Assembly: GCA_030141605.1 (NCBI GenBank)
Contig: JAQGDQ010000928.1
Coordinates: 1-64,000, forward strand
Direction: 5' to 3'
Length of the DNA stretch: 64,000 nucleotides
DNA from: Tubiluchus corallicola
Lineage: Eukaryota > Animalia > Priapulida
The position numbers and the translations under genes are program-made. The notes beneath the pieces were generated by a model, which did not search any database, was not told the DNA's origin, and saw nothing but the letters and a program-made list of their open reading frames with translations. Shown piece after piece: positions 29,658-64,000 of the stretch (position 1 is its first letter; every line of letters starts with the position of its first letter).

Positions 29658-29686
29658 AGAATTTACATTTCTTTTTCTGCAAATAG

Positions 29687-33208: not shown

Positions 33209-34184
33209 GTCACCAACGAGATCAAGAACTGAAGAAATCAACGAGATAATCTCTCGAGCACAGATGCATGCCAATGAGTATTTAGCGTCATCAACTAGAC
33301 CGACTGAACAAGATGATCCATTTCGAAACCTCACTGCTTCTCGAGATTTCCAAGTGCCTAGCTTCTCATCTTCATTGAAGGCTCCACATAACACCCCAAT
33401 ACAACAGCTTAGTCAAGCAAGAGTTCACAACTCTAAAGTACTTGATCTTGAGTGTTCATTGAATATTCCTTCTAGCCTAGCTTTGCAACGGCCAAGTCAG
33501 TCAAGGGGTTATTCCATTTCTCGTGACTCTCAAGTGCCTAGTTTTGTATCTTCATTAAAAAGTTCTTCCAACGTACCCATGCAGCAGCCTAGCCAGTCAA
33601 GGGATTATTCAACTTCTCGGGATTCTCCAGTTCATGGCCTTGAATCTTCATTGAAAGGTCCTTCTAGCACACCCATCCAGCAGCCTAGCCAGTCAAAGGA
33701 TTATTCAACTTCTCGGGATTCTCAAGTTCATGGCCTTGAATCTTCATTGAAAGGTCCTTCTAGCACACCCATGCCACAGCCTAGCCAGTCAAGGGATTAT
33801 TCCACTTCTCAGGACTCTCAAGTACATGGTCTTGAATCTTCATTGAAAACCCCTTCTAGCACACCCATGCCACAGCCTAGTCAGTCAAGGGATTATTCCA
33901 CTTCTCAGGACTCTCAAGTACACGGTCTTGAATCTTCATTGAAAGGTCCTTCTAGCACACCCATGCAACAGCCTAGTCAGTCAAGGGATTATTCCCCTTC
34001 TCGTGATTCACGAGTGCCTAGTCATGTATCATCGTCAAAAACTTCTACTAATGTGCCGATGCAACAGCCTAGCCAGTCAAGGGATAATTCCCCTTCACGG
34101 GATTGTCCAGTGCATAGTCGTGTATCTTCGTTGAAAACTTCTTCTAAATCACCCGTGCAACAGCCTAGCCAGTCAAGAAATTAG
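33209..34184 (+). CDS. Coiled-coil gene terminal exon with Ser/Pro/Gln-rich 32-aa tandem repeats
   Basis: TCCTTCAG acceptor, phase 2; 325-codon open frame; 96-bp unit (SRDYSTSRDSQVHGLESSLKGPSSTPMPQPSQ); AATAAA at 34313. Confidence 0.85.
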
Positions 34185-34416
34185 TCCCCTTGCCTGAATG
34201 GATTGTAGTTTTCTGAACTTCTGACACATAATCCAAATGCCAAAAATGTAAATAGTGATATTTTTAATTTTGCTCAATGTATGCACGAAAGGTAATGAAA
34301 AGTTCAAATATGAATAAATGTCTTGTGTGTAATTTGAGTGTTGCTTTTGCCATTTATTTCTTATTAGCCTAACTGATCACCGATTATCATTTTGTTATAA
34401 TATTGCCATCATAACT

Positions 34417-34929
34417 GTTGGATCACGTGACATCAGCATTGGATCACGTGACATCAGTGTTGGATCACGTGACATCAGCATTGGATCACGTGACATCAGC
34501 ATTGGATCACGTGACATCAGTATTGGGTCACTTGACATCAGTATTGGGTCACGTGACATCAGTATTGGATCACGTGACATCAGCATTGGATCACGTGACA
34601 TCAGCATTGGATCACGTGACAGCATTGGATCACGTGACATCAGCTTGGATCACGAGGCATCAGTATTAGATCACGTGACATCAGTATTGGATCACGTGAC
34701 ATCAGCATTGGATCACGTGACATCAGTATTGGGTCACGTGACATCAGTATTAGATCACGTGACATCAGTATTGGGTCACTTGACATCAGTATTGGGTCAC
34801 GTGACATCAGTATTGGGTCACGTGACATCAGTATTGGATCACGTGACATCAGTATTGGATCACGTGACATCAGTATTGGGTCACGTGACATCAGTATTGG
34901 ATCACGTGACATCAGTATTGGGTCACGTG
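34417..34929. repeat. 21-bp tandem array, about 24 copies, nearly all containing TCACGTGAC
   Basis: Unit TTGGATCACGTGACATCAGTA/GCA. Confidence 0.97.
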
Positions 34930-36856
34930 GTCTTTTGTACAGTTTACGAACTATTGGCAAATTAAGAGCTGAGATTTTATAATTATTTGTCGTGAAAAAG
35001 CATTGCACTTTATTGCACAATTTCAGAACCATATTCAGAGAATGCTGTACTATAATAACAAACATAATTGCTCTTATAACATTTAATAGTTTAGATCTAA
35101 TGTCTTTCAACTCTTACATGCCTTGTTACTTTTGTTTTACTATTATCATATAAAGACAAGTAAATAATTTAAGGTAATAATTTGTAACAAGCGAGAAAAA
35201 GCGTCTAAAAAATGAGGTGAGCTGAAGCCACACTGTGACAAATGAGGTAGTGATACGACTATCCCCAAAATGTCCTGCAAGTCAAGTGTTTAGGGACTGA
35301 TCTTAAAAGTGAAGGAAAAGGGGAAGAATAATGTAAATAGGTATCTTAAAAAGTCAAACTGTACAAAAGGCAGAACAGCAAAATATTTAAAGTAAAGGAA
35401 ATTTGTCCCACGAATGTTGAAAGTATAAGAGAAAATCATAACAGCTGGCAAACCAAACAAAGTGGTGCTGTGAATTACATAGCATCCATTTCACAACTGG
35501 ATTTTGAAACTATCTAGATAATCTAAGATAACAAATTGGTATAATCTTCATCTCTGCTGATAATAGGACCATTTGTTTCATAAAGCGTCTCTCCTCGAGT
35601 ACTGTCAACTTTCAGTCATGTTTCTTCACTGAGTATTTTATTATTTATTTATTGACGATTTACAAGCCATACAAATAGAATTGCAGTTACAAGTTACAAA
35701 CATTACATAAACAATGCAATACATTACAATGAGGAAAAAACTACGCAGACAAAACCCCGCACGTGGGGTATAATCATCAACATGATACACAATAAAACAC
35801 AATAATAATAGTAAACGGTGTTTACAGTGGTAAAATATTATAATTATGTTATATTATGTTAACTTATTTTACAATGTTTAGTACACAACAAATTTTAGAA
35901 TTGCAATTACATGTTTCAACAAATTTATACTGTTGAACATAATTATATTAAAATGTATTATATTAAAATTACATTTTACAAAATGGTAACATACATTTAA
36001 AGTGAAGCGTTAGAATTATTGTATATAATGAAGATCTTACACTACTAAATAAAACAACAGGTATTATAACTGTGTCGTCCAGAATTGGAATGGTTCATTG
36101 TTTTCTATGTGTTTCCCTGCTTTGCAGTGCATTTCTAATATTTCCCACCCTGAAAATCACAAAAATCCCATGTTATGTACATAAAAACAATTCCATGGGC
36201 TTATATGGAAAACTTGTTTTTTTCAGCCAGCCAGTTTACAGAACACTGATACTAAACATTTCACATAGAGTAATAGGTTTAAATAGAATAGAAATTTATG
36301 TTTTACTTGGATGCATAAGAATTACACTTACAAGTAAAACGTGTGATAGATTTTGTACTTTAAACTAGTTTAAATAAGCTCAAAAAATCAGCAGAAGCTC
36401 TGAACTAAAAAAAGAAAAATTACCCAGATAAATGTTGATATCCATACCAGAATTTGTGTGCTATTATTAACTCTTAAAATGCGATATCTGCATTAACTAA
36501 AAAGTCACTAACATGTCTGTTGCTATTGGCAGCAGCTCCTGACCCACTCCGGTCATTTCTTTTTTTACTTCTGCCATCCAGTACAAGCTGTCTGGCACTC
36601 TATATGGACTGGATTCTGAATCTAAATCTGAAATCTATACGGTTGGGACAACTTTTTTCAACGTAACTGCAATAGTTTTTATATCCCACAAAACGGTAGA
36701 ATGTCAGAATGTGTATATAATTAAAGTCAAACTAAGCCCTCACTAAAAAAACCCTCAATGTCTGTTAGGGTTGTATAGACCTTTAAGTGGTTCTTACTGG
36801 AGTGCTTTTTTATAAACTCTATAGTAAAGTTTGCCTAGGTCTAACTTAGTCTATAC

Positions 36857-37066: not shown

Positions 37067-37282
37067 CTGCGAATAAATGAAGAATTTTATTTTCTTTCAA
37101 GATATTGTTGATTCACGGCTTAAAAAGCCGGATGAATTTGGTATAAGTACTACAATTCAAAGCTAAACTGAACATACTGTTTCATCACATGTGTTAAGTA
37201 TAGTGTGTCATGTAATCATACTGCAGGCAATTGTCATGTCGTGCCAGTAATAAAGTAACAGGAAAAGTCACAATTGTGGCTA

Positions 37283-37790
37283 GAAAAAAATCACAGGAAA
37301 GCAGTCGCAATTAATTTATGGTGCCTGGTATTAGAATATTGAGAAAAAAGTCACAGGAAGGCAGTCGCAATTAATTTATGGTGCCTGGTATTAGAATATT
37401 GAGAAAAAAGTCACAGGAAGGCAGTCGCAATTAATTTATGGTGCCTGGTATTAGAATATTGAGAAAAAGTCACAAGAAAGCAGTCCCAATTAATTTATGG
37501 TGTCTGGCAATAAGATCACGAGAAAAAGTCACAGGAAAAAAGCCGCAATTAATTTATGGTGCCTGGTAATAAAATCAGGAGAAAAAAGTCACAGGAAATA
37601 AGTCACAGTTAATTTATGGTGCCTGGTAATAAGATCACGATACTAAACTCACAGCAAAGAAGTCAAATTATTTTACGGCGCCTGGTAATAAGAACACGAG
37701 ACTAAAGTCACAGGAAGTAAGTCACAATTATTTTATGGTGCCTGGTAATAAGATCACGAGAAAAATGTCACAAGAAAAAAAAGTCACAAT
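37283..37790. repeat. About 60-bp minisatellite, about 8 diverging copies
   Basis: Unit GAGAAAAAAGTCACAGGAAGGCAGTCGCAATTAATTTATGGTGCCTGGTATTAGAATATT. Confidence 0.9.
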
Positions 37791-46379: not shown

Positions 46380-47010
46380 TTTCAGCAACATAAGTTAAAG
46401 TAGATCAGAATATTTCTTAATGAAATCTCTACTCAAACTCTGCCTCACTCTTTCGGGACGTCGCAGACTGATAACTGTAACATTCTTCTTTATAATATTC
46501 TGGAGAATCGGTTAGCTAAGCAATAGCAAACTCTTGCAAACTCTGCAGCTAGATTAGTGTCATTTCCACTCAGATTTGAGCATACTATACATATTCTGGT
46601 TCAATTATACTGGTCTTCGTAGAGTTTTGTATAGGATTTAAAATCTTACTTATTGTTTTTAAAGATCTTCAAACTTGTGTCAGCGTACAATATGTAACTT
46701 CCTTTAACCGGTTAGAAGCTCAAAGTTTGGTCTAAGATGTAATTACAGTAAAAAATTTGCCCCTAAAAGTAAATTACCACTTTTGGTCACAAGTCATCAC
46801 TGTAGAACGACCTACCCATTGAACTTTTATTGATTAGATTCTGTTGATAATTTCAGGTTAAACGTTGTTTGAAAACACAATTTTAAACAATTTTTAGCCT
46901 AAATTAACGCAATTTGCATTTTTATCTGTATTGTATGTAACTGTTGTTAGTTTAGTATGTATCACTGTGTAAAGTGCACTAAAATATTGTAACGATAATT
47001 AATGCGCTAT
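46380..47010 (+). mobile_element. Decayed 3' end of an L2-clade LINE
   Basis: Fragments SQTDNCNILLY, NSAARLV...FEHTIHILVQLYW and GFKILLIVFK resemble L2 ORF2 C-terminal motifs (SRLDYCNSLL, QNAAARL, LHWLP, FKILLLVYK). Confidence 0.7.
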
Positions 47011-47789
47011 GAAATTTTTGTTTAATGTAATGTGTCACTTACCGATTAAAATTCAGTAGTCAAAGTGTGGAATAAATTAGAATATTGCGTATAAACAGAG
47101 CCGCATGTTCAAGCTTTAAACGCGTCAATATATTTTCTACAGAACAATACATTGATCTTTCCTGGTGGGACCACATACAATTTTGTGCCGAGAGTTTGAC
47201 CAAAATGACTGTTGTTGATGATGGTGGTGGTGGTGATGTTGGGGAACGACCTAATTTGTATAGACCTTCATGAAACTTTATACGAACACGAATTCTGCAT
47301 CGATTTCAAATACAGAACTTGAATTCTACAAAAATTGCCGATTGTTGCTAATTATTGTCTGTCAAAATGAGCGAGGATGAGTGTATAAATCAAAAGTGTC
47401 TTTGTCTTTTTGACTGACAAAGTCGGGAAACCTATCAGTCGTTTTGAATTCAAAATGGCAGCTATAACATCATTTTCGAAAAAAGCCTAAAGCTCCAATA
47501 GCTAGTCATGAAACTTTACAGGAATATGGCAGACAGAAAAACGGCATTTATCTGCTATCAGTAATAACACCATTTCCGAAAAAATGTATTGCCCTGCGGA
47601 ATTGCAAAGGATCGTCATGAAACTTTATAGGATACTGTTGTGGGTTAAGTTGCAAGCTGAGGCACCTACGCAGTTGTGACATCAGTCCACAAGGTTCCAT
47701 AAGATTTGTAAAGTTTCTGGAGTTAAGTAATTACGATCACAACACAAATATTCGACCGCCTGCACTGTAATATCTGTGTAGTAGATAGG

Positions 47790-48262
47790 AGTAAAGAGAA
47801 GATGATAATTGTATGATTAGTATTAGCAGTTCAGTAATGAAACGACTCTATGAAGGGGATATGAGAGATATGTAGAAATGAAGCCATGATTTTAGGTGCG
47901 GCTGTCATGTGACTGAATTCCATATACGGACATTGCCCGTCTGAATTGTCAGACTAGCAACAATTATAACGCATGCGCTGTGAGTCCAAAAAGCTGAAGG
48001 AAGCCAAGTGGAATGGGAGATCAGATCACGGGGGAATCTCGAGGAAGCAGGAACAGATCTTGGGCGGTTCGGCAGAGCTATGATATGTACTTTACCATGT
48101 AATATATTATTGTGAAATAAATGTGTTAGTCGCTCATCAATCCAGGTCTTATAGCTTTGTCACCACCTCACGTCAATAAACGGCTGCGGCCTCCTCAATA
48201 ATCCACCAACAAGTACTACCACTATACGACTCAGCTCATAAACATAACATATAAATTTTACT
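47790..48262 (+). repeat. 5' LTR (473 bp)
   Basis: Starts AGTAAA and ends TTTACT (terminal inverted repeat); AATAAA at 48116; followed by a TGG-starting PBS; start repeated at 63954. Confidence 0.9.
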
Positions 48263-48279
48263 GGTACTTGTGACCAGTT
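48262..48279 (+). other. Primer binding site (tRNA not assigned)
   Basis: TGGTACTTGTGACCAG overlaps the last T of the LTR; TGG is complementary to tRNA CCA. Confidence 0.65.
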
Positions 48280-48690
48280 CCGATTTTTCTACACGGAGAG
48301 AGATTCTAGTAACCTGGCTTCATTGCGTCCACAACCGCGCTGATCCAAGCAAACATGAATAAAGCTGTTTATTGACGTAATTGATCTGCCACACATCTTG
48401 ACGTCTACAACTTTGTCGTGAGTACATGCACGTTCTTTCTCCACCCTAATATTTTACTTATGTACCTTTCCTGGTTGTGTCAGTGAGTGTAAGAGATAAC
48501 GGTTGCTTGTATTTTAAAGTCAAGGAGGGTTGTAGATAAACTCTAACTTGTATATCAAACATTTTGGAGGGTTGTAACTCTAACTTGAATATCAAGATAT
48601 TGGAGGGTTGTAAAGATTAATCCTATAATGCACTGTAAATTGCGCAGCGCAAATAGATTTCTTAAATTTAATCTCTATTAAACTTTCTCA

Positions 48691-50019
48691 ATGGCGACTA
48701 AATCTCCAGCACCTGAAGCTCAGCATGTGTCTATTGATACCTATAATGCTTTAGCAAATCAATTTCATGAGTTGAGTCAAAGATGCGAGAATAGTGATAA
48801 AATCTTACAAACCCAAGCTGCTCAGATTTTAAAACAAGGAGAAAGAATAGGTGATTTGAAACGGGCTAGTGATCAGACCCAATTTTTATGTGAATTGGGC
48901 ACTCATCTAAAAGACACTAAAGTACAACAAACATTAATCCACCAAATTCAACACTTACCGAAATTTTCAGGAGAACCCGGCACTCTCAAATATAGAGATT
49001 GGATTGATAATATAGAGCAGTCTCTAAACTTAACTCCTACATTATTGACATCAAGGGACACCGCCTACAAGCATTTAATTTTGGGCACTATTACAGGGGC
49101 AGCCGCAAACTTTGTGAGTAAATACCCAAATCTCGAGACGAGAACAGCACAGGAATTACGAAACGCCCTAAGAGACCTATACGCGGACCGACTAGAAATT
49201 AATAAGGCTTTCATTGGATTAACTCGAGCTAGGCAACAGAAGGGGGAGACCATACAGGCTTTTGGCGACAGGATACTCAAATTAGCAAGAATAGCAAAAA
49301 CGTCAGAAGATGAAATAGTAGACCCAGCCTTTCAATCATTTTTGGTACAATTATTTACACTGGGTATACGAGGGGACCAGGCACGTCAATACTTACTTAG
49401 AGAGCCTCCCCGAACTCTAACTTTGGCAATCACAGAAGCCGCTAACAGGGGAGCCCCCGTGGAGATGTGCCAATATCTTAGATCGTGTTTTCCAGATAAT
49501 TCAGAACCTATGGAAGTTGATCTAATTTCACAAGAACTTCATGAAGACCCCTCAGACATGACTCCCCATACATTGCAGCTGTTTGCAGATTCATTACTTA
49601 AACAGGGACAAGTTTTAAGCAACGTACAAGAATCGGTATGTTCTCTTAATAAAACTGTCGCTACTTTGGCAAAACCAACACAAAATCAACAAGCAAGATT
49701 CGGTAAAGGACGTCAATTTGTACCAACGGGTTTTAATAATAATAATAACCGACAATTTCGGACAACCAATCGACCTAACGCTCCATTTCAACGTAATTTT
49801 AATAACTTTAATAATAGACAGTTCTACAACGAACGACCGAACACAGGTTTCAGGTTTCAACCGCGCGCTACGAATAGAAATAACAACTTCAATCAACGCG
49901 CGTCATGGATGCCTAGAGAAAACGCCCCGAATTTCAGATTTCAGAATAATAGACCATTTATTCCTAGGTTTAATAGGGAAAAACAATCCGGCAATTTTAA
50001 TAGGAGAACGGCAAACTAA
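48691..50019 (+). CDS. gag: Gag protein (442 aa)
   Basis: N-terminal coiled coil, LPKFSGE...WIDNIE capsid start, QKGETIQAFGDRI (MHR-like), EPMEVD motif, N/R/F-rich C-terminus without a CCHC knuckle. Confidence 0.93.
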   Translation: MATKSPAPEAQHVSIDTYNALANQFHELSQRCENSDKILQTQAAQILKQGERIGDLKRASDQTQFLCELGTHLKDTKVQQTLIHQIQHLPKFSGEPGTLKYRDWIDNIEQSLNLTPTLLTSRDTAYKHLILGTITGAAANFVSKYPNLETRTAQELRNALRDLYADRLEINKAFIGLTRARQQKGETIQAFGDRILKLARIAKTSEDEIVDPAFQSFLVQLFTLGIRGDQARQYLLREPPRTLTLAITEAANRGAPVEMCQYLRSCFPDNSEPMEVDLISQELHEDPSDMTPHTLQLFADSLLKQGQVLSNVQESVCSLNKTVATLAKPTQNQQARFGKGRQFVPTGFNNNNNRQFRTTNRPNAPFQRNFNNFNNRQFYNERPNTGFRFQPRATNRNNNFNQRASWMPRENAPNFRFQNNRPFIPRFNREKQSGNFNRRTAN

Positions 50020-51357
50020 AAGCGACCATTCATGAAAATTATCGGTCGTCAGAGTGGTCGCATGATCCTAGACCGAATTATTCCAATTCTTCTTTTAATG
50101 CACCCGACAAGTCTAAATTTCAACAAACTGTTTCAGAAACAAAATATATTTCTATTGCATCCATAGAAACGACGGCTCCATTTTGTAATATTAAAGTTCA
50201 TGATTATCCTTGTACAGCTATCTTAGATACAGGAGCAGAAGTTAGTGTTTTAGATAGCACCACTTTCCATAAACTCCCAACAGAAGTACAAAAAACCCTT
50301 ACGTCCCCTGAAGATAATTTTGTTTTAAATACTGCTTCAAAAAGCACGTTAAAAATATTAGGTAAATGGCATTTTAACTGTTACCATAGGAAAACAGAAA
50401 TTGGAAAATTTGTTTTATATCGTAGATCAACTTTCAAAACCTGTAATTTTAGGTTATAACTTTTTCAAAAACACCCAAGCAGCAATAGATATTGCCAACG
50501 GAATTTTAGTCATAAATCAAGAGGTACTTAAATTAGCTCCCCCGAGCGAAAAACGCATCTTTTTGGTCAAAGCCGCCACTGCTTTATTAATTCCCCCAAA
50601 ATCTTGTGCACTTGGCAAGGCGTATATCACAGGAAATTTTCATAAGAATGATGAATGCGTTCATACTTTAGAACTCCTTAAAGCGAACGTATTACCTATT
50701 TATAAAGAAACCACATGTGACATAGTTCCCAGTATTGTGAATATGTATAAGAAACAAGTTTATGTACCCTTATACAATGACGGTGAAAAGGATGTAATTG
50801 TATCTCGGAATGACATTTTAAGTCTTGCAGTTGAACAAGACCCAACAGTTATGTATCAAGTTTCAAATATTGCTAAATGCACGGAAGTTATGAACTCGAT
50901 ACAACAAATAGCTTCGCAACTTCAGAATGAAATTTTCCCTAAAATAAATACAACGGATAAGGGAAATTCCTTGCCAAAATATGTTCGTAGACTTCACGTT
51001 CAGACACTGGACCATGTGACGAAATACGGACCACCACAAGATTACAGATTACAACAGACACCTTACAAGACTGAAGCCATCTTGTATAATACTCCAAATA
51101 TAATACATTCCATTGATGAAAATATAGAAGCTAAACCTACTTCAAATAAACGAAGACGGAAACGGCTACAAAAGCATATTAAACAACAATTCGTTCGTAT
51201 GATGTCATCGGAAAGCTTACTAAAAGAATTAAAATTAGATAACATTACAGATCCCGTACTTAAGGAAAGACTCACTAAATTGCTTCTTAAATATGCAGAT
51301 TGTTTTGCTGAAGATCCCATAGACGCCCCGGTACGTCGGAAATTGAATTTAAAATAA
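50004..51357 (+). CDS. pol: Pol N-terminal part: aspartic protease and spacer, interrupted by indels near 50370 and 51325
   Basis: CTAILDTGAEVSVL (DTG at 50226) in one frame; the continuation ENLFYIVDQLSKPVILGYNFF (ILG motif) is in the next frame. Confidence 0.85.
50010..50079 (+). promoter_or_regulatory. Putative -1 ribosomal frameshift signal (G_GCA_AAC plus pseudoknot)
   Basis: The protease frame is -1 to gag and overlaps it by only 16 nt; heptamer 50010-50016, 5-nt spacer, stem 50022-31/50052-61, second stem 50037-47/50071-79. Confidence 0.75.
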
Positions 51358-51359
51358 GA

Positions 51360-54300
51360 ATGACAGATTATACACCTTATCACGCTAAACCGTACCCTAT
51401 ACCTATAAATTTGGAATCAGTGGTTAAACAGGCTATAGACACTATGTTAAAGGCAAAAGTCATAGTCCCAGCTGAGAATTCTAGTTATGCAAGTCCCATT
51501 CTGTTAGTTCCAAAAAAAGATGGAGGGAAGAGATTATGTGTAGATTTGAGACAAATCAATGCACGTACACTCCCTGACCCCTACCCACAACCGAACGTCG
51601 AAACATTATTTAAAGAATTAAAAGGTGCTAGTATATTCTCCTCTCTAGATATGACAAATGCATATTTTCAGATACCAGTTGAACCCGACAGTCAACCTTT
51701 TACAAGCTTTGTCAGCCCGTATGGCTTATTCCAATTTACAAAAATGCCCTTTGGTTTGAAGAATGCACCAGCTACATTTTCCAGATTAGTAGACCGCCTT
51801 TCACGTGACTTAATAACACCCACGGGTAGGAGACGCTTAATTGCTTATCTAGACGACCTTGTCTGTTGCAGTCCGGATATTGAAACCCATTTTTCCGATT
51901 TAGAAGATTTATTTTTGAGATTACGGAAAGCAAATTTAAAATGCCGACCCAGGAAATGTTTTTTCTTACAAAAATCTATTAAATATTTAGGCCACGTTTT
52001 GTCTGAACAAGGCATTGCCACAGATCCGGCAAAGGTGTTAGCTATTAAGAATGTTTCACCACCCACAGATATTAAAAAGCTAAGAACTTTTTTAGGTCTA
52101 GCCACTTATTATCGCAAATTCGTCAAAAATTTTGCGATAATAGCTGAACCATTATTAATGTTATTAAGGAAAGAAAATTCGTTTAAATGGACACATTTAC
52201 AACAAGAGGCTTTTGACAAACTGAAAACAGTTTTAACTGAAGCACCAATCTTGAAATATCCGGAGACTAATACAGGTTATATTCTCCATACCGATAGTTC
52301 GAACTTTGGCATAGGCGCTGTTCTTTCGCAAGAAGATGCAGCTGGAAATATCGGAGTGATCGCGTACATGTCGGAAACACTAAACAGCTCACAAAGATTA
52401 TGGCCTACATTTCAAAAGGAAGCATACGCCATCGTAGCTAGCTTTAGAAAATTTAAAACATATCTATATAACGCGCCAAAAATCGATGTTTATACGGATC
52501 ATGCACCGTTAATTTATTTGTTTACAGGTGCTAAATTAATGAATCAATTACTGTCTCGATGGGTAGTTGAGCTATTACAGTATAATATTAATATTTATTA
52601 CCAAAAAGGTTCAGAAAACACAGTTGCAGACGCGTTAAGTCGACTACCTGCATGTCCAGATTTTATAGGAACGCTCCCAATATCCTTTAGGGATTTTCAA
52701 CAACAGTTTCTACAATATAATTCGCCTGAAAGATTAGCAGAGAAATATAAATACTTAGTAGATCAGAAATCTACTTCAGAGCGCAGTAAAGGTATTAAAA
52801 CTACAGAGATGATTGCCCAAATCAGCCAACAAATGTCAGGTCAAACTGAATTAGAAAACTACTCAGATCAGACAATAATTAAAAAGGTACTACCTATAGA
52901 GGGTAACATTTTAGAAGAAAATATTTGGACAGGTGAAGACCCATTGTTAAACAGACCAACGGTCGAATCAGCTGGCAATGAAAACGCTCCAACTCAAATT
53001 CCATTACCAGCACAAGAAACCTCCTCATCGGACAACCCAGCCACTCAATTAGAACAAGGTGAAACTGAACATGACCTGGACGAATTCGATGGATTACCTT
53101 TAGATCTAACGACAGTACAGCAATGGCAATTATCAGATCCTAAATTAGCACCAATTATTCATGCCTTAACCTCACCTACAGAAACTGATATTCAAACAAA
53201 ACATGCAGAAAATTTCTACATTGATGAGCAGGGATTATTGTATAAAGTTGAAAATGACTCCATTAATTTAGAACAGGAAAATTTACGGTTAGCCATTCCA
53301 GCGAAATTAACAAGTATTTTAATTAGAGGCTTTCATGACGAATTTGCTGGACATTCTTCAGTAAAAAGAACATATGAGCGTCTGAAGAAACGATATTACT
53401 GGCCCGGCATGTTTGTACAAATTAAGAAACATGTAGATCAGTGTTTGAACTGTCAAACACGGCGTATGAGACCGCATCGTAAACCTTTAGGTATCACAGA
53501 ATTAGCCAGTAAACCCTTTGAAAATGTATATTTGGATATCTTAATTTTACCCCAGACAGAATCTGGTTATAAATATTTACTAGTTTTAATAGATCAATTA
53601 AGTAGCTGGATAGAGGCCTTTCCTTTAATTGATAAATCAGCTAACTCAGTTGCTAATGTCATCCTTACAGAATATTTCTCTCGTCACGGAGCAAGTAAAA
53701 CCTTTTTCAGTGATCAGGGAACAGAATTCAATAATGCTTTATTAAAAGCTTTACTAAAAGAATTCAGGGTTGTTCAAGTATTAGGAACACCGTACCACTC
53801 GAATTCACAAGGCCAAGTTGAACGCGCTAATCGCACTATTATCCAACAATTAGCATATGTTTGTCAACAAAAGTCCACAGATTGGATTAAATATCTGCCG
53901 CATGTATTATTCGCCCTTAGAACAACTCCAAATTCAATAACGGGGTACAGTCCATTTTTTTTAATATATAATCGCCACTGCGATTTGCCACTCGATAATA
54001 TCCTTCAACTTAGATCTAAATATTACGGATCTGATCCAATTAGACTGGATCTAAATCGTTTGCATGAAGCCTTTCTGCAAACCCGACAACTGATGCATAA
54101 AAATCGTCTAGCCCACAAAAAACGCTATGATAAAAATACGCATATACCTCTTTTCAAAATTGGTGATCCAGTTTTCTTACGTAAAGGTAATTTAGACCCT
54201 GCTGAATCACATAAACTATGTCGACCGTGGGCCCCATATTATGTAATAGTTAATAAAATTGATGAATCCCGTCTTAGAATTGTCCATAATAACACAGGCA

Positions 54301-54819
54301 AGTTTAAAATAGTGCACCCAAACCGGTTACGAAAGGCAAATTTGCAAGGAAATCAATGGCTGCTACCAACAGGAACGTCGTCGCATTCCAAGCGAACTTC
54401 AAAACGAAAATCCACATTACATTACGTCCCGGAAACTCTTTCAGACACTGATTCAAATAACCTAATAAATGAGATCCAACCTGACCAAACCCCCATCGCA
54501 ACCCCGCCCCCGAACTTGGATTTCTATGAAAATGAACCCCAACCTCAACCTAACATTTCACCCAGTTCGTCAAATTCTACACTTCATTCTTTGCCAACTT
54601 TAGAACGTATAGATCCGATGGAAGAGGAGAATTTAATTCAAACCGAAACAGATTATGCAATGCCAGTAGACAACTTAATTCCCCCCCTCGCAAACCGTTC
54701 TATAAAACGCTCATCAGACGCCGACACGCNNNNCTGGTAAGCGTGCCAGAATTAATTTAATTAAGTTGCAAAAACCAGGCATCTTTAAAACATTACGCCG
54801 AAAATTTTGCAAACAATAA
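51360..54819 (+). CDS. pol: Pol: reverse transcriptase, RNase H, integrase
   Basis: RLCVDLR, MPFGLKNAPATF, YLDD; TDSS...TDH...VADALSR; HHCC zinc finger, DDE core (LDIL, SDQGTEF, QVERANR). There is an NNNN gap at 54730-33; the likely true end is ...GKRARINL...FCKQ* at 54819. Confidence 0.96.
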
Positions 54820-56592
54820 CTAAAATAATATTAATGTTACAGTTAAAGTTACCATGTATTATAAGGTCATACTTTAACGTTTAATATTACTGTTACAATC
54901 AAAGCATTTTTATATTATAAGGTAATACCTTAGTGCTATAAAATAGAATAGTACCATTTTAAGGACGAGAACGTCATCAATCATGTTTCTTTATGTATAA
55001 GGTAAGTACAAGTTTTATGTATAACGAAAGTGTTTAGAGTATGAACATTTTTCGATTCCCGGGAGAGCATTTCCCGTGTGTGACGTTTAAATGTCACATA
55101 CGGCATGCTTATGCATATCGAGGCTGTTCATGCAACTATTTTATTAAAACATTTAGTACGAGTTCAAAACATTTAGTACCAGTTCAAGCCCGGACACGAC
55201 TTAACACCACAAGAATATATATCGGTAAGTACATTACGAACATTAACATGAAGCCGTCCCCCCCCCTCACTCATGACTTTACATAGAAGGCGATCAGACT
55301 TTCATTTTCTTAATTTATGACACGCGGACTCTTAAGAAGTTTCACTAAGAAACCGCGCTGAGCCACGCAGGCGTCGTGTTTCATTCATGACTTTCACTTT
55401 CGTAATTTACGACCCAGGATTCCCAAGCTTTAAGAATACTTCTCTCCTAGAAGCCATATAAAGATCGTGTTTCATTCCTACTGATACATGCTGGGTACAT
55501 ACACGGCAACGAACCATATGAGCGCTAAAAGTCTTAGCCCATAAAATGGCCCCCCGTGAATGACGCCCAATGTTATGCTTCTAAACGTCACATAAACTTA
55601 CACTGGGGCTTACCACGCCTAAAGACACTCAGAGACTTTTATTTAATGCGCTTCCCTTCAGATAATGTAGCGTATAAATTTACTTAACAACTACACAAGT
55701 TCCAGAGAGGGATATTGCTTAAATGATTCAAGAATATTTGCACAACGTTCTAATGATTGACAGAATAATTGTGTATTGCTGTAACGATTTTAAAGAATAT
55801 TTCAAAAAGAGTATTTAGATATTGTTTTATCGACATTAGGAGGATATCTTACGGTATATCACTAAGTGTAATTAAATAAATACTTAACACAGCAACGAAC
55901 ATTTACGCTGTATTACTCTATAAAAAGAATTTCTATTCAACAAGCCCCATTGAAGTACTAGAACGAATAACCAACATATTAAACTAAGATTATAGCTAGA
56001 TTAAACTCGGAATTTCTAATTCAGATAACCGACTTGAATAAATGTATTGATCAAACGTTTTAGTCTAGAGTTTTAATTACTACAATCATTTCAAAACGGA
56101 TAAAAATGACCATTTATAACTTATACATTTTAAATTCTAACGACCATTTACGAGAAAGTTAAAACCAACTAACTGTCAGAAAATATAATCCATCTCACGT
56201 TTAGCTATAATTCAACTCACCCCTAGTTAATTACGGCAAATTACGCGCATCACTAGACAATGATAAAAGATTATATATAGTCTAGACAAGTGTCTGTTAA
56301 AACCGAACGCGCGGACTCATCAACGCAGAGTATTATCACCAAATTAGTAATTCTTCATGCAGTAGAAAAAAAAAGGTATTTTCCTTGTAGACTCTAATCA
56401 GCGAATATTCGATTATTGTATAATGACTTATGATGCTAAATACAAACATACCTTCCTTGCGATCCGCCTTGATCCATAATGCATAGTCACACTTCTATAT
56501 ATATATGATATGTCCACATAAAGGATAAATATTTTTTTTTCTTTTCAAATTTTAGGATTTTTTTTAAATTTTTTTTTAATTTTCCACTTTTC

Positions 56593-57147
56593 TTAGCACT
56601 TCACCGCTAACCACCTTTCTTCCGTTCCCTCCTCCCAGTTGCGTTTATATACTCTCATCACCCGTGCCAGGTCCCATATTGTTATTATGTTATGTGCCGC
56701 GGTGCAGATACAAAAATTCTCTCGGTTGATAAAGCGGACCCGGCCGGGCGCGTATTTGGTCAGTAAATTTGCCATAACTGGCATCCCATGAATACTGCTC
56801 AGTTTTAGCACCACTAGTTCTTCCTGTAAAAGGAATATAAATCTTTATTAAAAGTCCTCGAGACAAATTTTCTTTTAACTGCAGAATTAGCAATCTAGTG
56901 ATTTTAACATAATAGTCCTTACCTCAAAAAAAAAAAACAAAACAAAAAAAAAACCATTACTTACTCCATCAATGATGGACTTGCCGCAGAAAAGCTCGCA
57001 TGTGCCAGGCAAGTACGTCATTTTTAGAGCACGACTAAGTTGGTCATGCAACTGTGCCCGTTCATCCAAAACATCGTAAAAGTTCCCGCTCGTAATTTCG
57101 AGCTCTACTGCCAATAAGTAGGCATCTCTCGGTACTTCACATTCCAT
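56593..57147 (-). CDS. Putative two-exon antisense gene inside the element (exons 57147-56965 and 56823-56593; 137 aa, unknown function)
   Basis: AAAATGG start, GGA|GTAAGT donor, TTCCTTTTACAG acceptor joining in frame; GC-richer coding blocks between AT-rich flanks. Confidence 0.6.
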
Positions 57148-57970
57148 TTTTATTATTATTTTGAAACTAGTAAAACTGGTGAAACTAGAAAAAAAACTGA
57201 ATACTTTGCACAACTGATTAAGACGCCTTGACCACACGAACAGAAATTACGAAGAGGGACTGACCAACAACTGCAAGTCTCTTTTATGTGAGAGGCCTGG
57301 GAACTTTCGTATACTGCGTATAGAATTTGACTCCGTTTGGGCCCCAATGCTCATTACTAAGCGATAAAAGTACTAATAGTGAAAACCCTAGACGCAAAAC
57401 CGAAGCTTAACGACCATTCTGATCTACAACTTATCCTGAGAAAGGGGACTGCAAAATCTTTTCCCACGGACATTAACTGGCTTTAAGAAGAAAGATGAAT
57501 TGTTTTTACTATTAGCTGTCCAGGCCAAAATTATTGCAAGTGGACACGTGCTTCACTCGCCCCCCTTTGATCAACGCTGATCGGATTTCAAGACTCACCA
57601 AATAAGTCGAGATTGTTAATTGAGCCACACTTATTTACGCATGCGCACATGCGCCAGGGATACACCTTTAAAATAACTGTCCGTTACCTACTAAATCCAT
57701 TCATCCAGATTTTTCTTATAGTAAGGGACTCTGAATAGACGTTAAGATAATTTTGCCTTGAATACACATTAATCTTAATAATTTTTGCTGTGAATACATG
57801 TTAATCTCACCATCTCATAATTTGAATTTTTGTGAAAAAAAAAAGAGTATGGAACTTTCAGGAAATACGTAAGTTTATCTTAAATTTATTCTAACCTTAC
57901 TAATTTAGAGTCATAGAAATGATCTGTATAGGACAACCTGAATAATATTCCTTTTGAATTTTTTTTCCAG

Positions 57971-60586
57971 GACCAGTACTACAAACCTTTTATACAAAAT
58001 CCTAATATTGGCAATATTCTTAAATCTGTACATTCTAATTCCTTACAATCATTCCCAAATCCAGCTCCCTTTAAAACAGGCCCAGGGGTTATATTTAAAC
58101 AGAAATTAAATACTCCAGTTTCTAATGCAAGATGGCTACTTATTGCGCCGATACAGTTGGACCACATTCAAGAATTTCTCACTAGAACGCTTTCCGAAAT
58201 TCAACAATTAAGATTAATTAAAAAACCTGTCACAGTGATTAAAGCCTTTAAAACTGCTATTAAAAATAGAATCAGAAATCAACAATTTCGTTTAAATTCC
58301 ATTAAGAATTTAATAGCCTCGTCTGCCCATGAATCTCACGTCGTCAAACGAAGCATTTTTCCGAATCTAGGAAAGGCATTCAAATTTTTAATCGGAACCG
58401 CGAGTGAAGAAGATCTTCGAAATCTTCAAGATCAGATTACGAGTATCTTTAATACGCAACAAAACACGCAAGATATTTTAGAAAATAACCTAGCCCTTAT
58501 CAATAGCTCGCTAATTCGCTCTGCTAGAAATACAGAGTTAATTTATGACTTAGTGAACGCATCAGTTCAAACTCGACATTACATTAACAAACTGTCAAAA
58601 CAGTTTACTGATGACTTGACTAAAACTCAACATAAATTGTTTACATTCTTGCAAACAAATTTGCTGTTTGATCACTTTATCTATAGCTTAGAAATCATTG
58701 ATCAAGAATTGAATTCGTTATCCCAAGGTTTACATCAACTAATTCTTAATAAATTACCCCCAACTTTAATAACCCCTATACACCTTCAAAAGTCTCTTAA
58801 ACAAATTGAGGACCAGCTACCACAGAGCCTAATATTTCCAGCCGATATAAATAATCAATTATTCTATTATTACGAAACAATGTCGGCATTACCTATTCAA
58901 ATTCCCGGAGGGTTTGCTATCCTAACAACATTAGATTTATATCATGTCAATCACATCTATCAAATTTTTGAAGCAATATCGATCCCAGTCCGTCGGACAT
59001 CAACCAATATTAATAAACCTGTTTATCTATATAACCAAATTGATCATCAGTATATTGCTACGAATATTGAGCAGTCACTATATTTTTTCCCAGCCAAAGA
59101 TGAAGCCTTTGCTTGTATTCAAAGCCCAAAACGTATCTGTAAGTTAGCACCAACGCCAATTTTTCCTGCAGATAGAATAGAATCATGTACAGCGGCATTG
59201 TTTTTCAAGGACACTATTAAAATAGATTTATTTTGTGATCAACGAGCAAGAATTATTAATAAACTTGGACCAGTTATTATACCTCTAACTGAGAATACTT
59301 ATTATATTAGCCCGAGTTTTGAAATTCAAGCCATAAAATCTTGTTACGTACCCCGCCAGGCTCATAAGATTGGCACCCCCCTCACCATCAAGAACCCGAT
59401 GATCCTGCAGTTAGAATCAGGGTGTGGCCTATCTTCTAAATATGCAAATTTACCAATATATTTTAAGAATCATTCAGACCTTACTTTAACTCAAACGGAC
59501 ATCCAAACAATCTTAGATACGGCACTTAATTTAAGTACTTGGAACGTTGATTTATTAGGAAGTAATTTTACGATAGGAACACTTCAAACACTGCAAGCTC
59601 TGCCGTCACGAATGACAGAGGATGAACCACTTGACTTTTCTCTTAAAGGTAGTCAAAATCTCTTATTAAAACGACAGAAGTTTTTGGACCACACTGATGA
59701 ATTATTCAAAACCAAACCGGTTGACTTTTCCAATCATAAGGGTGCATCATTGACAACATACTTATTTATAGCACTTATTATAATCTTTATTATAATTTAT
59801 GTGACTTGTCGTACGAAAATTAAGACAGCATGTTGCCCCCGTCTTATAAACACCAAACCAACTTCTACCAAGGCTAAACCACCCCGCGGTACCCATTCTA
59901 ACAAACCCAATACTCCGCCTATGACACTTCACCCTAACCCAATGACCCGTAATAGACTTCCTCAATACCAGCCTCCCAAGGAATTTATCAAAAAACCCGA
60001 ACCACGGGAACCAATTGTTCGTTATAACCCAAATAACGATTCTGTTGATTTCGTATCCGTCTTTACATTCCATTCAAGAACAGTAAAACTTCGTTTATTT
60101 CTTTTATTCTATAGTTTTACCCACGAGGCCGAAGATCACCTTTCGAAAATAGATGACAGCATAGATAAATTTCTACAAGAACTTAACGAAACCTACGAAG
60201 TCAATTATAACTTGATTCGTAACCTTTCAACACCTGAGACACCCCAAACGCCCCAATCCAACTCCACCTATGAGAATACTGAACAAATTATGCCTTTAAC
60301 CTTTTCCCTCGCACCAGACACTCCGTTATCTCCCCAGGAAATATATCACTTTTTAAAATCACCACTTCCACCAATCCCAGACTCGTTAACAGCTGCTTCC
60401 AAAGACACACAGACTGACTTGACTTGTCAACCCAGCGAAAAAATTGTTTTTACTACAACTAAACTGTCACCCACTGTTTGTACTAAACAGACACAGACAG
60501 AATTTTCGTTTCCACCAGATCTTCTTGTTCTTGTGAAACGCCCTTTATCGGAAAACGAGTTCTTTCATAAATTCGCTCCCATATAA
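57971..60586 (+). CDS. env: Envelope fusion glycoprotein (baculovirus F / errantivirus env-like), probably spliced at its 5' end
   Basis: The frame opens after a TTTTTTTCCAG acceptor; GVIFKQ...WLL N-terminal motif; KR|SIFPNLGKAFKFLIGTASEEDL cleavage site and fusion peptide; heptad region, Cys-rich region, TM LFIALIIIFIIIYV, long cytoplasmic tail. Confidence 0.88.
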   Translation, partial: DQYYKPFIQNPNIGNILKSVHSNSLQSFPNPAPFKTGPGVIFKQKLNTPVSNARWLLIAPIQLDHIQEFLTRTLSEIQQLRLIKKPVTVIKAFKTAIKNRIRNQQFRLNSIKNLIASSAHESHVVKRSIFPNLGKAFKFLIGTASEEDLRNLQDQITSIFNTQQNTQDILENNLALINSSLIRSARNTELIYDLVNASVQTRHYINKLSKQFTDDLTKTQHKLFTFLQTNLLFDHFIYSLEIIDQELNSLSQGLHQLILNKLPPTLITPIHLQKSLKQIEDQLPQSLIFPADINNQLFYYYETMSALPIQIPGGFAILTTLDLYHVNHIYQIFEAISIPVRRTSTNINKPVYLYNQIDHQYIATNIEQSLYFFPAKDEAFACIQSPKRICKLAPTPIFPADRIESCTAALFFKDTIKIDLFCDQRARIINKLGPVIIPLTENTYYISPSFEIQAIKSCYVPRQAHKIGTPLTIKNPMILQLESGCGLSSKYANLPIYFKNHSDLTLTQTDIQTILDTALNLSTWNVDLLGSNFTIGTLQTLQALPSRMTEDEPLDFSLKGSQNLLLKRQKFLDHTDELFKTKPVDFSNHKGASLTTYLFIALIIIFIIIYVTCRTKIKTACCPRLINTKPTSTKAKPPRGTHSNKPNTPPMTLHPNPMTRNRLPQYQPPKEFIKKPEPREPIVRYNPNNDSVDFVSVFTFHSRTVKLRLFLLFYSFTHEAEDHLSKIDDSIDKFLQELNETYEVNYNLIRNLSTPETPQTPQSNSTYENTEQIMPLTFSLAPDTPLSPQEIYHFLKSPLPPIPDSLTAASKDTQTDLTCQPSEKIVFTTTKLSPTVCTKQTQTEFSFPPDLLVLVKRPLSENEFFHKFAPI

Positions 60587-60646
60587 TTTATATAAAGTTT
60601 GATTCAACGCTAATTTGTGATGTATAGATATGTTTCATTTTGCAGC

Positions 60647-60805
60647 ATGAATACGCTACGATCTAACCCCCCTACCGACGAAGTTATATCACGTCGCGCG
60701 TATATTACAGTCGTACTTTTGACACTACTTGTATTCTGCATAATAATAACGGGAATACTGTTTGCAGTCTGGGAAAGAAAATGTGAACTGCTGGGAAAAC
60801 AATAA
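60647..60805 (+). CDS. Small single-pass membrane protein (52 aa), putative accessory ORF
   Basis: ATG directly after a TTTCATTTTGCAG acceptor; hydrophobic segment YITVVLLTLLVFCIIITGILFAVW flanked by basic residues; AATAAA overlaps the stop. Confidence 0.55.
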   Translation: MNTLRSNPPTDEVISRRAYITVVLLTLLVFCIIITGILFAVWERKCELLGKQ

Positions 60806-61256
60806 AAGGGATGAAGAATTGAAATGTTGCCTTGAATAATATATGAGTAATTGTATAATGAGTATGACTGGATACCTTAACCTATTTTCCATATATCATT
60901 CTTTCCTTTTTTACCTTAACCTTAAAACCCTGCCTAGCACGTGCAAGAAGCCAGCCGGCTTCATCTCAACAAGACAGCTATCGACCGCCGGAAGTCAGCA
61001 CGGAAATCCATCGTACACACCGAGCGACGCAGCCAAGCCAAGCCAGTGATCATAGTAGTACACAAACTTTGCAGCTGTCTTTGCTAATGTTTGCTAATCG
61101 CTCTAGAACTAGTCTACGTAAACTACAGAACAACTATTTTGTGAAATTGTGTAAACCAGAGCCCTAGTTGATATATGGTGAACAGCATCAAAGAAAACTT
61201 TGTTCCGGTGAACAGCATTAAAAATAACTTCGTTCTACGTTTCATTTACCAGTGCA

Positions 61257-61616
61257 ATGAAACTAAATATGAAACTAAATATTCGAGTATTAGCAACTTA
61301 CACATATCAAAAACCACCTTTCAGGAAAACCTACTACCTCGTAAATTATAAAGGAGCTCAGTTTATTATCTTAGAATTACTACATACGAAATATTTTAGA
61401 AGATATCCGTTGAGTGTAATTAACTTTAAACCGTACTTTGATCGATATTTAACAATGAGGATGATTAAACATCGTGTTTCGCAAAATGTGAATCAAGCAA
61501 CTGTACCTACTATAAATTGTCAGGACTTTATAAATTGTCAGGACTTTATGCGCTGTCAGAACTATTTTAAACACTTAATGGGAGAACCACATATTTGTGT
61601 CGACGATATAATTTAA
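61257..61616 (+). CDS. Orphan 119-aa ORF
   Basis: ATG-initiated ORF between env and the receptor ORF; RKTYYLVNYKG weakly recalls the chromodomain YLVKWKG motif; internal INCQDF duplication. Confidence 0.4.
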   Translation: MKLNMKLNIRVLATYTYQKPPFRKTYYLVNYKGAQFIILELLHTKYFRRYPLSVINFKPYFDRYLTMRMIKHRVSQNVNQATVPTINCQDFINCQDFMRCQNYFKHLMGEPHICVDDII

Positions 61617-61711
61617 AAGAAACCTTTAGACTAACATATGTTGATGGTGCAAGAACATTCGGCCTTCGCTACATTATAAAGACGTTTAAAACGTTGTGTA
61701 ATTGTTTAGCC

Positions 61712-62578
61712 ATGTCAGACACGGTTATACAAAGCTGCCTAGTCTGTTCTGCAGCAGCTTTCATTAAACACTATGGCAAATTAACGTGTAACGCGTGCCG
61801 CTATTTTTTTTACAGAAAGCAGCACGTTAAAAATGTATGTTCTAAACGTGGCTGTGTTGGAAATTGTCGTATTACCCCAGACACCAGACGTCATTGTCAA
61901 CTTTGTAGATTTAACAAATGTATAGCCGTTGGTTTACAGCCAACTTCACCTCGTTTTGGGAGGTCATCTAAATCTCGTCAGAATCGTCTCAAAGCTAAAC
62001 TTAATTATCGGGTCAAATCTATTAACCGGATGGCAAACCAACTTCTACCTGTCGCCGTAAGAATCACAATTCAGAAGGCATGCCAACAACCCGAATTACA
62101 AACATTACCTGTCGAAGACCAGAAAATTCTACTAAAATCTGGCGCTCCAAGTATAATTCTAATTTGGCTAAATACACTTATTAATTTCGTGTCGCTTGCC
62201 CAAGAATTAGTGCCGCAACATCAACTCAGTGATTTCGATGAGTTTACACAACAACTTTATAGAACTGCACAGGCGATTATGCTAGTTAGACCAACGCAAG
62301 ACGAGTTGGAAATCTTAACAAACATCTTACTCTATGACTCAACTTGCCTTAATTTACAACGTCCAGACCGAGTGGCTCATTTTCACTCTCGGTGGATAGA
62401 ACGATTTAATTGTGAAATAGCACTTCACTGGCCTTCTAGATTCACCTCGCAAATGGGGGCTTTAAGCAACTTCCAGGCTTTATATCAAGCAGTAATCGCT
62501 TTTGCGACACGACTGAAGTCTGTTCAGCTCAACTTGGATCAAAACACTTGTTTTCAGACAGAGGAAGAGAATGAATGA
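61712..62578 (+). CDS. Intronless nuclear receptor (C4 zinc-finger DBD plus shortened LBD), NR1-like, 288 aa
   Basis: GCCATG start; C-x2-C-x13-C-x2-C with HYG; C-x9-C-x2-C-RFNKC-x3-GL; RFGRSSK C-terminal extension; LBD signature LPVEDQKILLKSG and H8-H9-like TQDELEILTNILLY. Confidence 0.92.
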   Translation: MSDTVIQSCLVCSAAAFIKHYGKLTCNACRYFFYRKQHVKNVCSKRGCVGNCRITPDTRRHCQLCRFNKCIAVGLQPTSPRFGRSSKSRQNRLKAKLNYRVKSINRMANQLLPVAVRITIQKACQQPELQTLPVEDQKILLKSGAPSIILIWLNTLINFVSLAQELVPQHQLSDFDEFTQQLYRTAQAIMLVRPTQDELEILTNILLYDSTCLNLQRPDRVAHFHSRWIERFNCEIALHWPSRFTSQMGALSNFQALYQAVIAFATRLKSVQLNLDQNTCFQTEEENE

Positions 62579-62579
62579 A

Positions 62580-63290
62580 AAATGAATAACATTACTGTAT
62601 ACTTATATTTTGAACTTTAAGAATAATGTTCAACATTTTGATCATTTTGATACAATTTTAACATGGAGATTCAATGAATAAATGAATAACATTGTGTGTT
62701 CAATGTATAATATGATGTTAAAGGAATAATATTGAATAACCGTGTGTATTCATATATGATGTCAAATGAAAGATATTGAATGACACTGTGTACTTATATT
62801 ATGGATGAAATGATGAAATATTGAACAACCGTGTGTACTTATATAGGATGTCAAATGAATGATTGTGTATGTATATTATGAAATGATGAATAACGTTGTA
62901 TACTTATATTTTGAAATGCGTCCAATAATGTTGTGTTCCTGTATTTTGAAATGAAATGTTGGATAGTATAATGTTGATTTTGCACGACGTGTGTATTTAT
63001 ATTGTATAATGATTGATGATTCATCGATGTCAGATTGTCATTTATACTTTTATGACCGTGATGGATGACGGATGATTTATTGATGCAGATTGTCACTTAT
63101 ATTTTATGACGGTGACTAATGATTCAGATTGTCACTTATATTTTATGACGGTGACTAATGATTCAGATCGTCACTTATATTTTATGACGGTGATTGACGA
63201 CTCAGGTGACGACTCAGGTTGTCATTGATATCGTTTGATAATGATTGATGATTCAGGTTGTCAGCTGATGACTTATAGCTGATGACATAT
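62580..63290. repeat. AT-rich degenerate tandem repeats in the element's 3' untranslated region
   Basis: For example the 39-bp unit GATTCAGATTGTCACTTATATTTTATGACGGTGACTAAT, about 3 copies at 63086-63195, and recurring GAATAAC..TGTGTA units. Confidence 0.75.
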
Positions 63291-63942
63291 ATATATATCT
63301 ATTTTGCCTTGATTTACGTAAATTTATATCCTGACTTGACTTGTATTCGGAATGGTATTTTAAATGGTATCAGTTGAACTCATATAATTACTCCTATAAC
63401 TATATATCTCAATAGCATAGTTGATACGATAAAGAAAATCGATTAGGATAGTATACTGCATGATTGGACCTATACACTCGTATATTGTGCGCTTACTTAT
63501 ATAGTTTGCATATATATATTAGAAACTCTGATAAATGTTACACGTATGTATCAACTGTGTGTTTAATAATATTTGTATATCTCATTAGCCTAGTTATACT
63601 TACTAAGGATGATAACATGATAAGGAAAATTGCTTGCTATACTAGATTTAACCGGTATACCTCACCTGTCCATATTACTGTTATCAATGTTGTAAATGTA
63701 TAGTTTAGTATAAGGACGAGCAAGCCTCGTGCCTCCATACTCACAAGGACATTCGGATTGCCTAGATATTTTAATTAGATATTTTAAATCAGATATTTTA
63801 CTTAGATATTTTAACTGGATATTTTACTCACATATTTTAAAAATCAGATATCTTAAATCACATATTGGTCATGTATTTTAGACAGATGATATAATATTAA
63901 AATTATCTAATCTGCCAGCCCCGAGGGAACTAACTTCCTTTT

Positions 63943-63953
63943 AGGAAGAGAGG
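63943..63953 (+). other. Polypurine tract
   Basis: AGGAAGAGAGG, preceded by a T-run and immediately before the 3' LTR start. Confidence 0.8.
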
Positions 63954-64000
63954 AGTAAAGAGAAGATGATAATTGTATGATTAGTATTAGCAGTTCAGAA
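63954..64000 (+). repeat. 3' LTR (first 47 bp)
   Basis: 46 of 47 nt identical to the 5' LTR start. Confidence 0.9.

Follow-up and report, generated by a model that had tools for sequence, protein, structure and literature searches.

A priapulid Ty3/gypsy element with an F-type env carries an intronless nuclear receptor whose copies differ mainly by silent changes

v-ErbA, carried by a defective vertebrate retrovirus as a fusion with Gag, derives closely from TRalpha. Among annelid errantiviruses, the 35 with coordinates for their long terminal repeats (LTRs) span 7.4-12.6 kb in the 45 of 1,512 rows considered (PMC13524379), and the baseline of 7-9 kb assumed for errantiviruses in an earlier note on the DNA described here was too narrow. 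In the available part of that report, the survey of ancient errantiviruses accepted pol-env gaps of at most 1 kb, with an extension of 3-5 kb in manual steps, and regions of at most 10 kb. With these gap and length filters it could miss the element of our study; the terms 'nuclear receptor', 'antisense' and 'accessory' have 0 occurrences in its main text. Fish foamy-like endogenous retroviruses of 17 kb (PMC6431247, in the part available) are a precedent for size. Our subject lies in a stretch of 64,000 nt of contig JAQGDQ010000928.1 from Tubiluchus corallicola, called the window in the following. Its region 47790-64000 is one env-bearing Ty3/gypsy LTR retrotransposon with an F-type env, and the total length of the element is 16,637 nt, assuming that the 3' LTR equals the 5' LTR.

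The largest accessory open reading frame (ORF) of this element is a nuclear receptor:

61712-62578, + strand: intronless nuclear receptor gene, 288 amino acids (aa), with a DNA-binding domain (DBD) at residues 8-76, an RFGR T-box, a short hinge and a ligand-binding domain (LBD) at about residues 110-269

The DBD matches Pfam zf-C4 (2.3e-14). It contains two C4 fingers with the conserved cysteines, nine of them invariant across 28 sequences and all zinc ligands retained, as well as the FF, R and KC..G residues typical of the superfamily. The helical LBD with the H3-H4 signature is present in shortened form, with the hinge and helix 1 region reduced. Residues 110-269 align with LBD helices 3-11 (i-E 1.2e-12, profile of 23 host receptors, query excluded), a score reached by 0 of 479 scored shuffles (500 made), and LxxxDQxxLLK is retained together with these helices. 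The value for the LBD obtained by hhalign was 96%. Furthermore, the receptor matched 88 PDB sequences, the best 60 of which are all nuclear receptors with PPARgamma and NR1D1 leading, and zf-C4 plus Hormone_recep clusters in the ESM Atlas (0.96). The AF2 model (pLDDT 81) retrieved full-length receptors, receptor-DNA complexes and LBDs in a Foldseek search. A comparatively weak splice acceptor at 61709 and an AATAAA at 62677 accompany the ORF.

By its RFGR T-box, the receptor would fall into the PPAR/Rev-erb/ROR group, and identity to the sampled host receptors is 21-34% (ROR 34%, Rev-erb and PPAR 32%). The EGCKG P-box and the helix 12 carrying activation function 2 (AF-2), both features of canonical ligand-activated NR1 receptors, were not found. 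The P-box reads NACRY, and no AF-2 helix was seen, the profile match ending at residue 269 and the AF2 model in coil. The recognition helix is CNACRYFFYR compared to mostly CEGCKGFFRR in hosts; the pattern CNAC..FF occurs in 3 of 150 hits, in none with the receptor's own residues. Three of four base-reading positions, which we take the altered P-box residues to be, deviate from the canonical receptor, and several further canonical DBD residues are altered, too. The N-terminus comprises 8 residues, and the distance from the DBD to helix 3 is 46, compared to 42-320 in the 16 of 23 hosts with a detectable pattern. At the helix-3 lysine position the window has Cys; this position varies among copies. 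A HMMER search against 1.84 billion representatives gave 4,125 matches at E<=0.001, none at 1e-30 and mainly to the DBD. Relatives of the receptor were found neither among the 421 candidates of a word-based search nor in viral and metagenome contigs. One candidate relative, P0234, was rejected as its likeness is confined to the DBD.

The region 46500-64000 was compared with the contigs of runs X1, X2, X4 and X5; X1-X3 belong to one sample, X4 to another sample and study. Between receptor copies, 26 of 40 listed differences are silent where 11.5 were expected (0/100,000 permutations), and 25 of the 40 fall on third codon positions (P 0.0002). None produces a stop (2.0 expected), pN/pS is about 0.15, and the DBD differences are silent in four of four cases. 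For pol, 11 of 17 listed differences are silent. GC content by codon position is 0.49/0.39/0.34 in the receptor and similar in gag (0.48/0.40/0.32). Diverged receptor contigs (<90% alike) make up 16 of 51 in X2, and a diverged receptor contig continues into upstream element sequence (61652 to 61705, side 33). Receptor pieces in X4 show 0-1 differences from the window. The receptor is thus present in several copies with an excess of silent changes, and since the copies differ mostly in this way, the element probably produces a transcription factor of its own.

The receptor gene stands among the following features of the element:

47790-48262, + strand: 5' LTR, 473 nt, AGTAAA...TTTACT with 6-bp inverted ends, AATAAA at 48116 and 48175
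48262-48279, + strand: motif resembling a primer-binding site (PBS), TGG, one-base overlap with the LTR end
48691-50019, + strand: ORF in gag position, 442 aa, C-terminus rich in Asn, Arg and Gln
50004-50459, + strand: piece of the aspartic protease with LDTG, in the -1 frame relative to gag and overlapping it, Pfam RVP 9e-5
50362-51357, + strand: middle pro-pol frame piece, breaks in the window on either side, codon score resembling gag/pol/env
51312-54740, + strand: frame for reverse transcriptase (RT; YLDD), RNase H and integrase, Pfam RVT_1, RT_RNaseH_2, Integrase_H2C2 and rve, in gypsy order
56593-56823, - strand: predicted exon 2 of an antisense gene, 76 codons, weak WD40-like features
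56824-56964, - strand: predicted intron of the antisense gene, 141 nt, 25% GC, in phase, pyrimidine-TACAG acceptor
56965-57147, - strand: predicted exon 1 of the antisense gene, 61 codons, GTAAGT donor at 56964
57932-60586, + strand: F-type env frame, acceptor at 57970, Pfam Baculo_F 1.6e-4, true ORF ends uncertain
60647-60805, + strand: ORF with a single transmembrane (TM) segment, 52 aa, acceptor at 60645 directly in front; 61 aa if started at the ATG at 60620
61257-61616, + strand: basic/aromatic ORF, 119 aa, past an acceptor at 61252
63030-63263, + strand: 39-nt tandem repeats within the AT-rich 3' untranslated region
63943-63953, + strand: polypurine tract (PPT), adjoining the start of the 3' LTR
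63954-64000, + strand: start of the 3' LTR, truncated by the window end

We consider it fairly probable that the element holds a selected intronless receptor captured long ago, predicted to be a hormone-independent factor of new DNA specificity which tunes the element's own expression. A spliced host mRNA of NR1 type would have been captured between env and the 3' LTR; thereafter the N-terminus, the hinge and helix 12 may have been trimmed and the P-box changed. Expression of the receptor would proceed from the 5' LTR through a spliced subgenomic mRNA, like that of env and the two small 3' ORFs. The protein would be a ligand-independent factor of repressor type, as in Rev-erb or v-ErbA, and would read a new site, chiefly on the element itself. 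Because three of the four base-reading positions are non-canonical, its own sites would be favoured over host AGGTCA elements. Own sites in the LTR or in internal promoters are a possible target; host AGGTCA elements are a somewhat more doubtful one.

Several observations weigh against this interpretation. The 40 receptor differences are those listed of 163, come from several contigs and represent lineages that are not independent, and the codon score of the receptor relative to gag/pol/env is about zero. X1-X3 may be the source of the window itself, and the depth of contigs does not equal copy number. Among the diverged copies in X2, one lacks 16 nt inside the DBD (302 vs 318 letters) and is hence broken. 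A deletion of 859 nt (61658-62516) in X2 and X4 removes most of the receptor; its junction has short sides of 30-32 nt. The deletion variant retains the final 62 nt of the ORF, indicating a loss and not the state before capture. In a tree of 24 sequences and 127 columns, which was uninformative, the receptor forms a long branch outside PPAR/Rev-erb/ROR. The AF-2 pattern was detected in just 10 of 23 host receptors, so that its absence alone is weak. The LTR shows no enrichment of AGGTCA-like or TGAC motifs; an excess of TGAC in the 3' untranslated region stems from tandem repeats. The acceptor in front of the receptor is weaker than the other acceptors (7/12 pyrimidines) and lies 2 nt before the ATG. 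The word-based, viral, metagenome and 1.84-billion-representative searches brought up no related receptor-bearing element elsewhere. Finally, pro-pol is split into three frame pieces in the window, with NNNN at 54730-54733. The dominant run contigs differ in length from the window at the pro-pol breaks as well as at two places in env; the former indicates breaks peculiar to this copy or to the assembly, the latter leaves both ends of env uncertain.

As a close but less probable alternative, the captured receptor might be cargo that manipulates the host and not an autoregulator, acting as a v-ErbA-like dominant negative, as a sink for co-repressors or RXR, or to the benefit of the host like the Burro1 IAP. 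The preserved helices 3-11 with their signature, the unseen helix 12 and the lack of motif enrichment in the LTR would fit such a role, for which the dominant-negative v-erbA (PMC6834155) and the B-IAP of Burro1 (PMC13465017) are precedents in the available parts of these papers; the altered P-box speaks against an occupation of canonical host elements. It is improbable that the receptor is a passenger that was once under selection, be it in the host or in an ancestral element, and is now dispensable and decaying. The broken diverged copy, the deletion variant in two samples and the changed canonical DBD residues are in line with decay, but the silent excess concerns element-like copies with a likeness of about 85-90%, well after the split from host receptors. 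Likewise, stops are absent from the 40 differences and the dominant copies have an open ORF. That the spacer between pol and env and the 3' region are unrelated nested insertions or an assembly chimera in one copy is highly improbable: none of the listed contigs reaches across the whole element, the NNNN and small length differences between window and runs exist, and the antisense exons combine a high GC content at third codon positions (GC3, 0.49-0.55, unlike the element genes) with A-rich tracts behind the stop, but depth is even across all parts in two samples and contigs bridge pol and spacer (X4, 53977-55080) as well as the TM ORF and the 119-aa ORF (X1, 60668-61381).

The accessory regions of the element behave as integral parts of the family. 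Runs X1, X2 and X4 cover 30 of 30 bins of 46500-64000, and sampled words of 54800-63900 were present at 60-84% in four runs (two samples, two studies). The depth of the dominant X2 contigs is 916-1041 for gag, 805-929 for pro-pol, 807 for the spacer, 939 for env and 1078-1144 for the receptor. Flank contigs have a depth of about 170-260, and the dominant contigs of the element about 4-5 times that of the flank. Terminal direct or inverted repeats were not found around the spacer or the post-env region. Spacer, env and receptor at gag-pol depth and their presence in a second sample indicate that these are not private nested insertions but parts of the family, as the earlier note had supposed. 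In run X4, RT (50500-53500) and the middle of env (59000-59900) are far deeper than integrase, spacer and receptor.

Concerning the layout, the final 47 nt of the window (63954-64000) are identical to 47790-47836 at 46 of 47 positions, and the window stops within the 3' LTR. Together with the Pfam domains this bears out the gypsy element of about 16.6 kb with gag, pol, env and accessory ORFs proposed in the earlier note. Its estimates for the pol-env spacer (3.1 kb) and the post-env region (3.4 kb) agree with our measurements: the env acceptor lies 3,231 nt past the end of pol, the 3' LTR 3,368 nt past the end of the env frame. Its long open ORFs must be qualified, as pro-pol consists of three frame pieces and not of one ORF. 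The recent insertion it suggested from the LTRs had as basis only those 47 nt with one mismatch; the near-identical copies in the runs support it better. The 3' boundary of the 5' LTR is backed by loose contig ends at 48262 in X4. LTRs (the 3' one visible over 47 nt), PBS and PPT are present as in Metaviridae, and Pfam confirms the order protease-RT-RNase H-integrase with a gypsy-type RNase H and an H2C2 integrase. No row with a PBS matching 48262-48279 occurs in the part of the PMC13524379 supplement that was searched. The seven bases preceding the 5' LTR (47783-47789) agree with the PPT end at 6 of 7 positions, which may be due to chance, target preference or a tandem-copy remnant. Just 5' of the element, a short dispersed repeat (47442-47631) was found in X1, X2, X4 and X5, with numerous joints and loose contig ends. 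The element and the greater part of the flank are not covered by X5. In X1, X2 and X4, the LTR depth summed over 47668-48251 is about 10 times as high as the depth of the internal part, suggesting many solo LTRs or related families.

A zinc knuckle was not seen in the gag ORF, and its Pfam matches are weak only (PNMA E 0.098, Retrotran_gag_4 E 0.21). The nearest relatives of the RT-RNase H region are gypsy-type pols with 32-44% identity (best 120 of 1,873), and the RT search of metagenomes returned a single distant locus (L001, 32%). The env match to Baculo_F falls under the curated cut-off; env also matches the PDB fusion protein 9w4d (E 0.0013). It contains a basic cleavage site followed by a fusion peptide (residues about 137-160), six Cys and a TM segment at about 607-625, and the first start codon of the frame stands only at 58880. 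As in errantiviruses, an F-type env with cleavage site, fusion peptide and TM segment thus lies 3' of pol. Single-sequence structure prediction gave no confident fold for env (pLDDT 35), and relatives of env were not found in viral contigs. Inside the Pro/Thr-rich tail of env (60114-60586, + strand) there is a strong acceptor-like site and a coding-like codon score with no Pfam match; the runs differ in length just upstream. Judged by these signals, the final approximately 157 codons of env may be a separate spliced ORF.

The spacer contains two antisense ATG ORFs (56887-57147 and 56593-56784). The earlier note had described them as an ORF pair; both are present, but probably they are two exons of one spliced gene encoding a predicted protein of 137 aa, a second accessory gene besides the receptor. 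A second in-phase donor also exists. Within the spacer, GC content peaks in the exons (46-48% vs 34% in the remainder and 25% in the intron), and the two listed copy differences in exon 1 are silent. Their high GC3 suggests an origin different from or later than that of the receptor. Exon 2 gave a WD40 lead in the ESM Atlas (0.94, 144-156 shared features; PDB E 1.4); the gene has no Pfam match and no family beyond these weak features. In 300 order-2 Markov shuffles of the post-env and spacer regions, two post-env ORFs of at least 119 aa occurred in 0/300. Two spacer ORFs of at least 80 aa occurred in 4% and three of at least 60 aa in 11%, so that by length alone the spacer ORFs are merely marginal. 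An ORF of 81 aa in the spacer (55041-55286) is likely due to chance given its negative codon score and atypical GC by position.

In the post-env region, the three ORFs of the earlier note are present, measuring 61, 119 and 288 aa, plus one of 68 aa; the identity of the 288-aa receptor had been overlooked. The 68-aa ORF (60843-61049) likewise has a negative codon score and is probably a chance ORF. A strong YAG at most 6 nt 5' of the ATG was observed for 4 of 159 ATGs in 54741-63953, two of which start the 52-aa and the 119-aa ORFs. The 119-aa ORF has no family match in Pfam. The 52-aa ORF contains a TM segment but starts with MN and has a tail of 11 residues, differing from FAST-like/sORF2 fusogens with their N-myristoylation Gly and polybasic tail. 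The acceptor-like sites before env and the 3' ORFs support the parallel to complex retroviruses drawn earlier, as an analogy and not as homology: with a gypsy-type pol, an F-type env and splicing that is predicted only, the element does not belong to Retroviridae.

Elsewhere in the window, a host gene for an amiloride-sensitive channel of the DEG/ENaC kind has an exon at 8079-8492 (- strand; Pfam ASC 1e-19), for which a homolog search found no relative. Frame pieces at 11999-13923 (- strand) resemble decayed LINE reverse transcriptase, presumably of the L2/CR1 type. Minisatellite arrays with units of 58, 56, 80, 24, 96, 21 and 60 nt occupy parts of 22500-25000, 29040-34980 and 37225-37780, the 96-nt array being situated within an open frame of 329 aa (33195-34184).

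Extra genes in gypsy elements are already known. For a nuclear receptor inside a gypsy element or retrotransposon, our searches of the open-access literature brought up no report, while subscription papers or Repbase entries could hold one. Going by the available parts of the reports cited here, ancient errantiviruses (PMC13524379) share with our element gag-pol-env, the gypsy order of pol, the F-type env with cleavage site, fusion peptide and TM segment, and near-identical copies, but differ from its approximately 16.6 kb and 3.2-kb pol-env gap. If the element is confirmed, surveys of env-bearing gypsy elements that select by a short gap between pol and env and by overall length would appear to overlook a class of large elements with cargo. 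The giant gypsy Burro/GYPSM1 of planarians (PMC6431247, PMC13465017) is likewise large, with env homology and captured host regulatory domains. It exceeds 30 kb, and its giant polyprotein includes BIR/RING, BCL2, MATH and ankyrin domains; a nuclear receptor is not named in those parts. Bdelloid LTR elements with ORF3 (PMC5408684) and the Drosophila MDG1 group with sORF1 and sORF2 (PMC11952523) have extra ORFs in invertebrate Metaviridae, too, among them one for a small TM protein and one for a nuclear protein. The products there are esterase, exonuclease, env or FAST-like proteins, whereas the 52-aa TM ORF of our element has neither a Gly at the N-terminus nor a long basic tail and adjoins a full env. 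An internal, likely spliced antisense gene is shared with plant Tat/Grande-type and fungal gypsy elements (PMC8220671); here the host is an animal, the position is between pol and env, and no sequence family is detectable.

More tentatively, the element might represent a complex endogenous retrovirus lineage of invertebrates with its own rewired receptor, a spliced antisense gene and small spliced 3' genes, timing its expression and spread by the endocrine and developmental programme of the host. If true, Metaviridae would have reached the organisation of complex retroviruses independently, complete with a regulator that binds DNA, a gene in antisense and alternative acceptors at the 3' end. 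A natural receptor with a rewired P-box would then be available for assays of the protein by itself. The closest analogue of the receptor is v-erbA of avian erythroblastosis virus (PMC6834155, in part), likewise an intronless altered nuclear receptor in a retroviral element and, by prediction here, ligand-independent. Different from v-ErbA, the receptor is a free-standing ORF with 21-34% identity to host receptors in an endogenous member of the Metaviridae that keeps gag, pol and env. If confirmed, a selfish element retaining a nuclear receptor under selection would be the invertebrate endogenous counterpart of v-ErbA.

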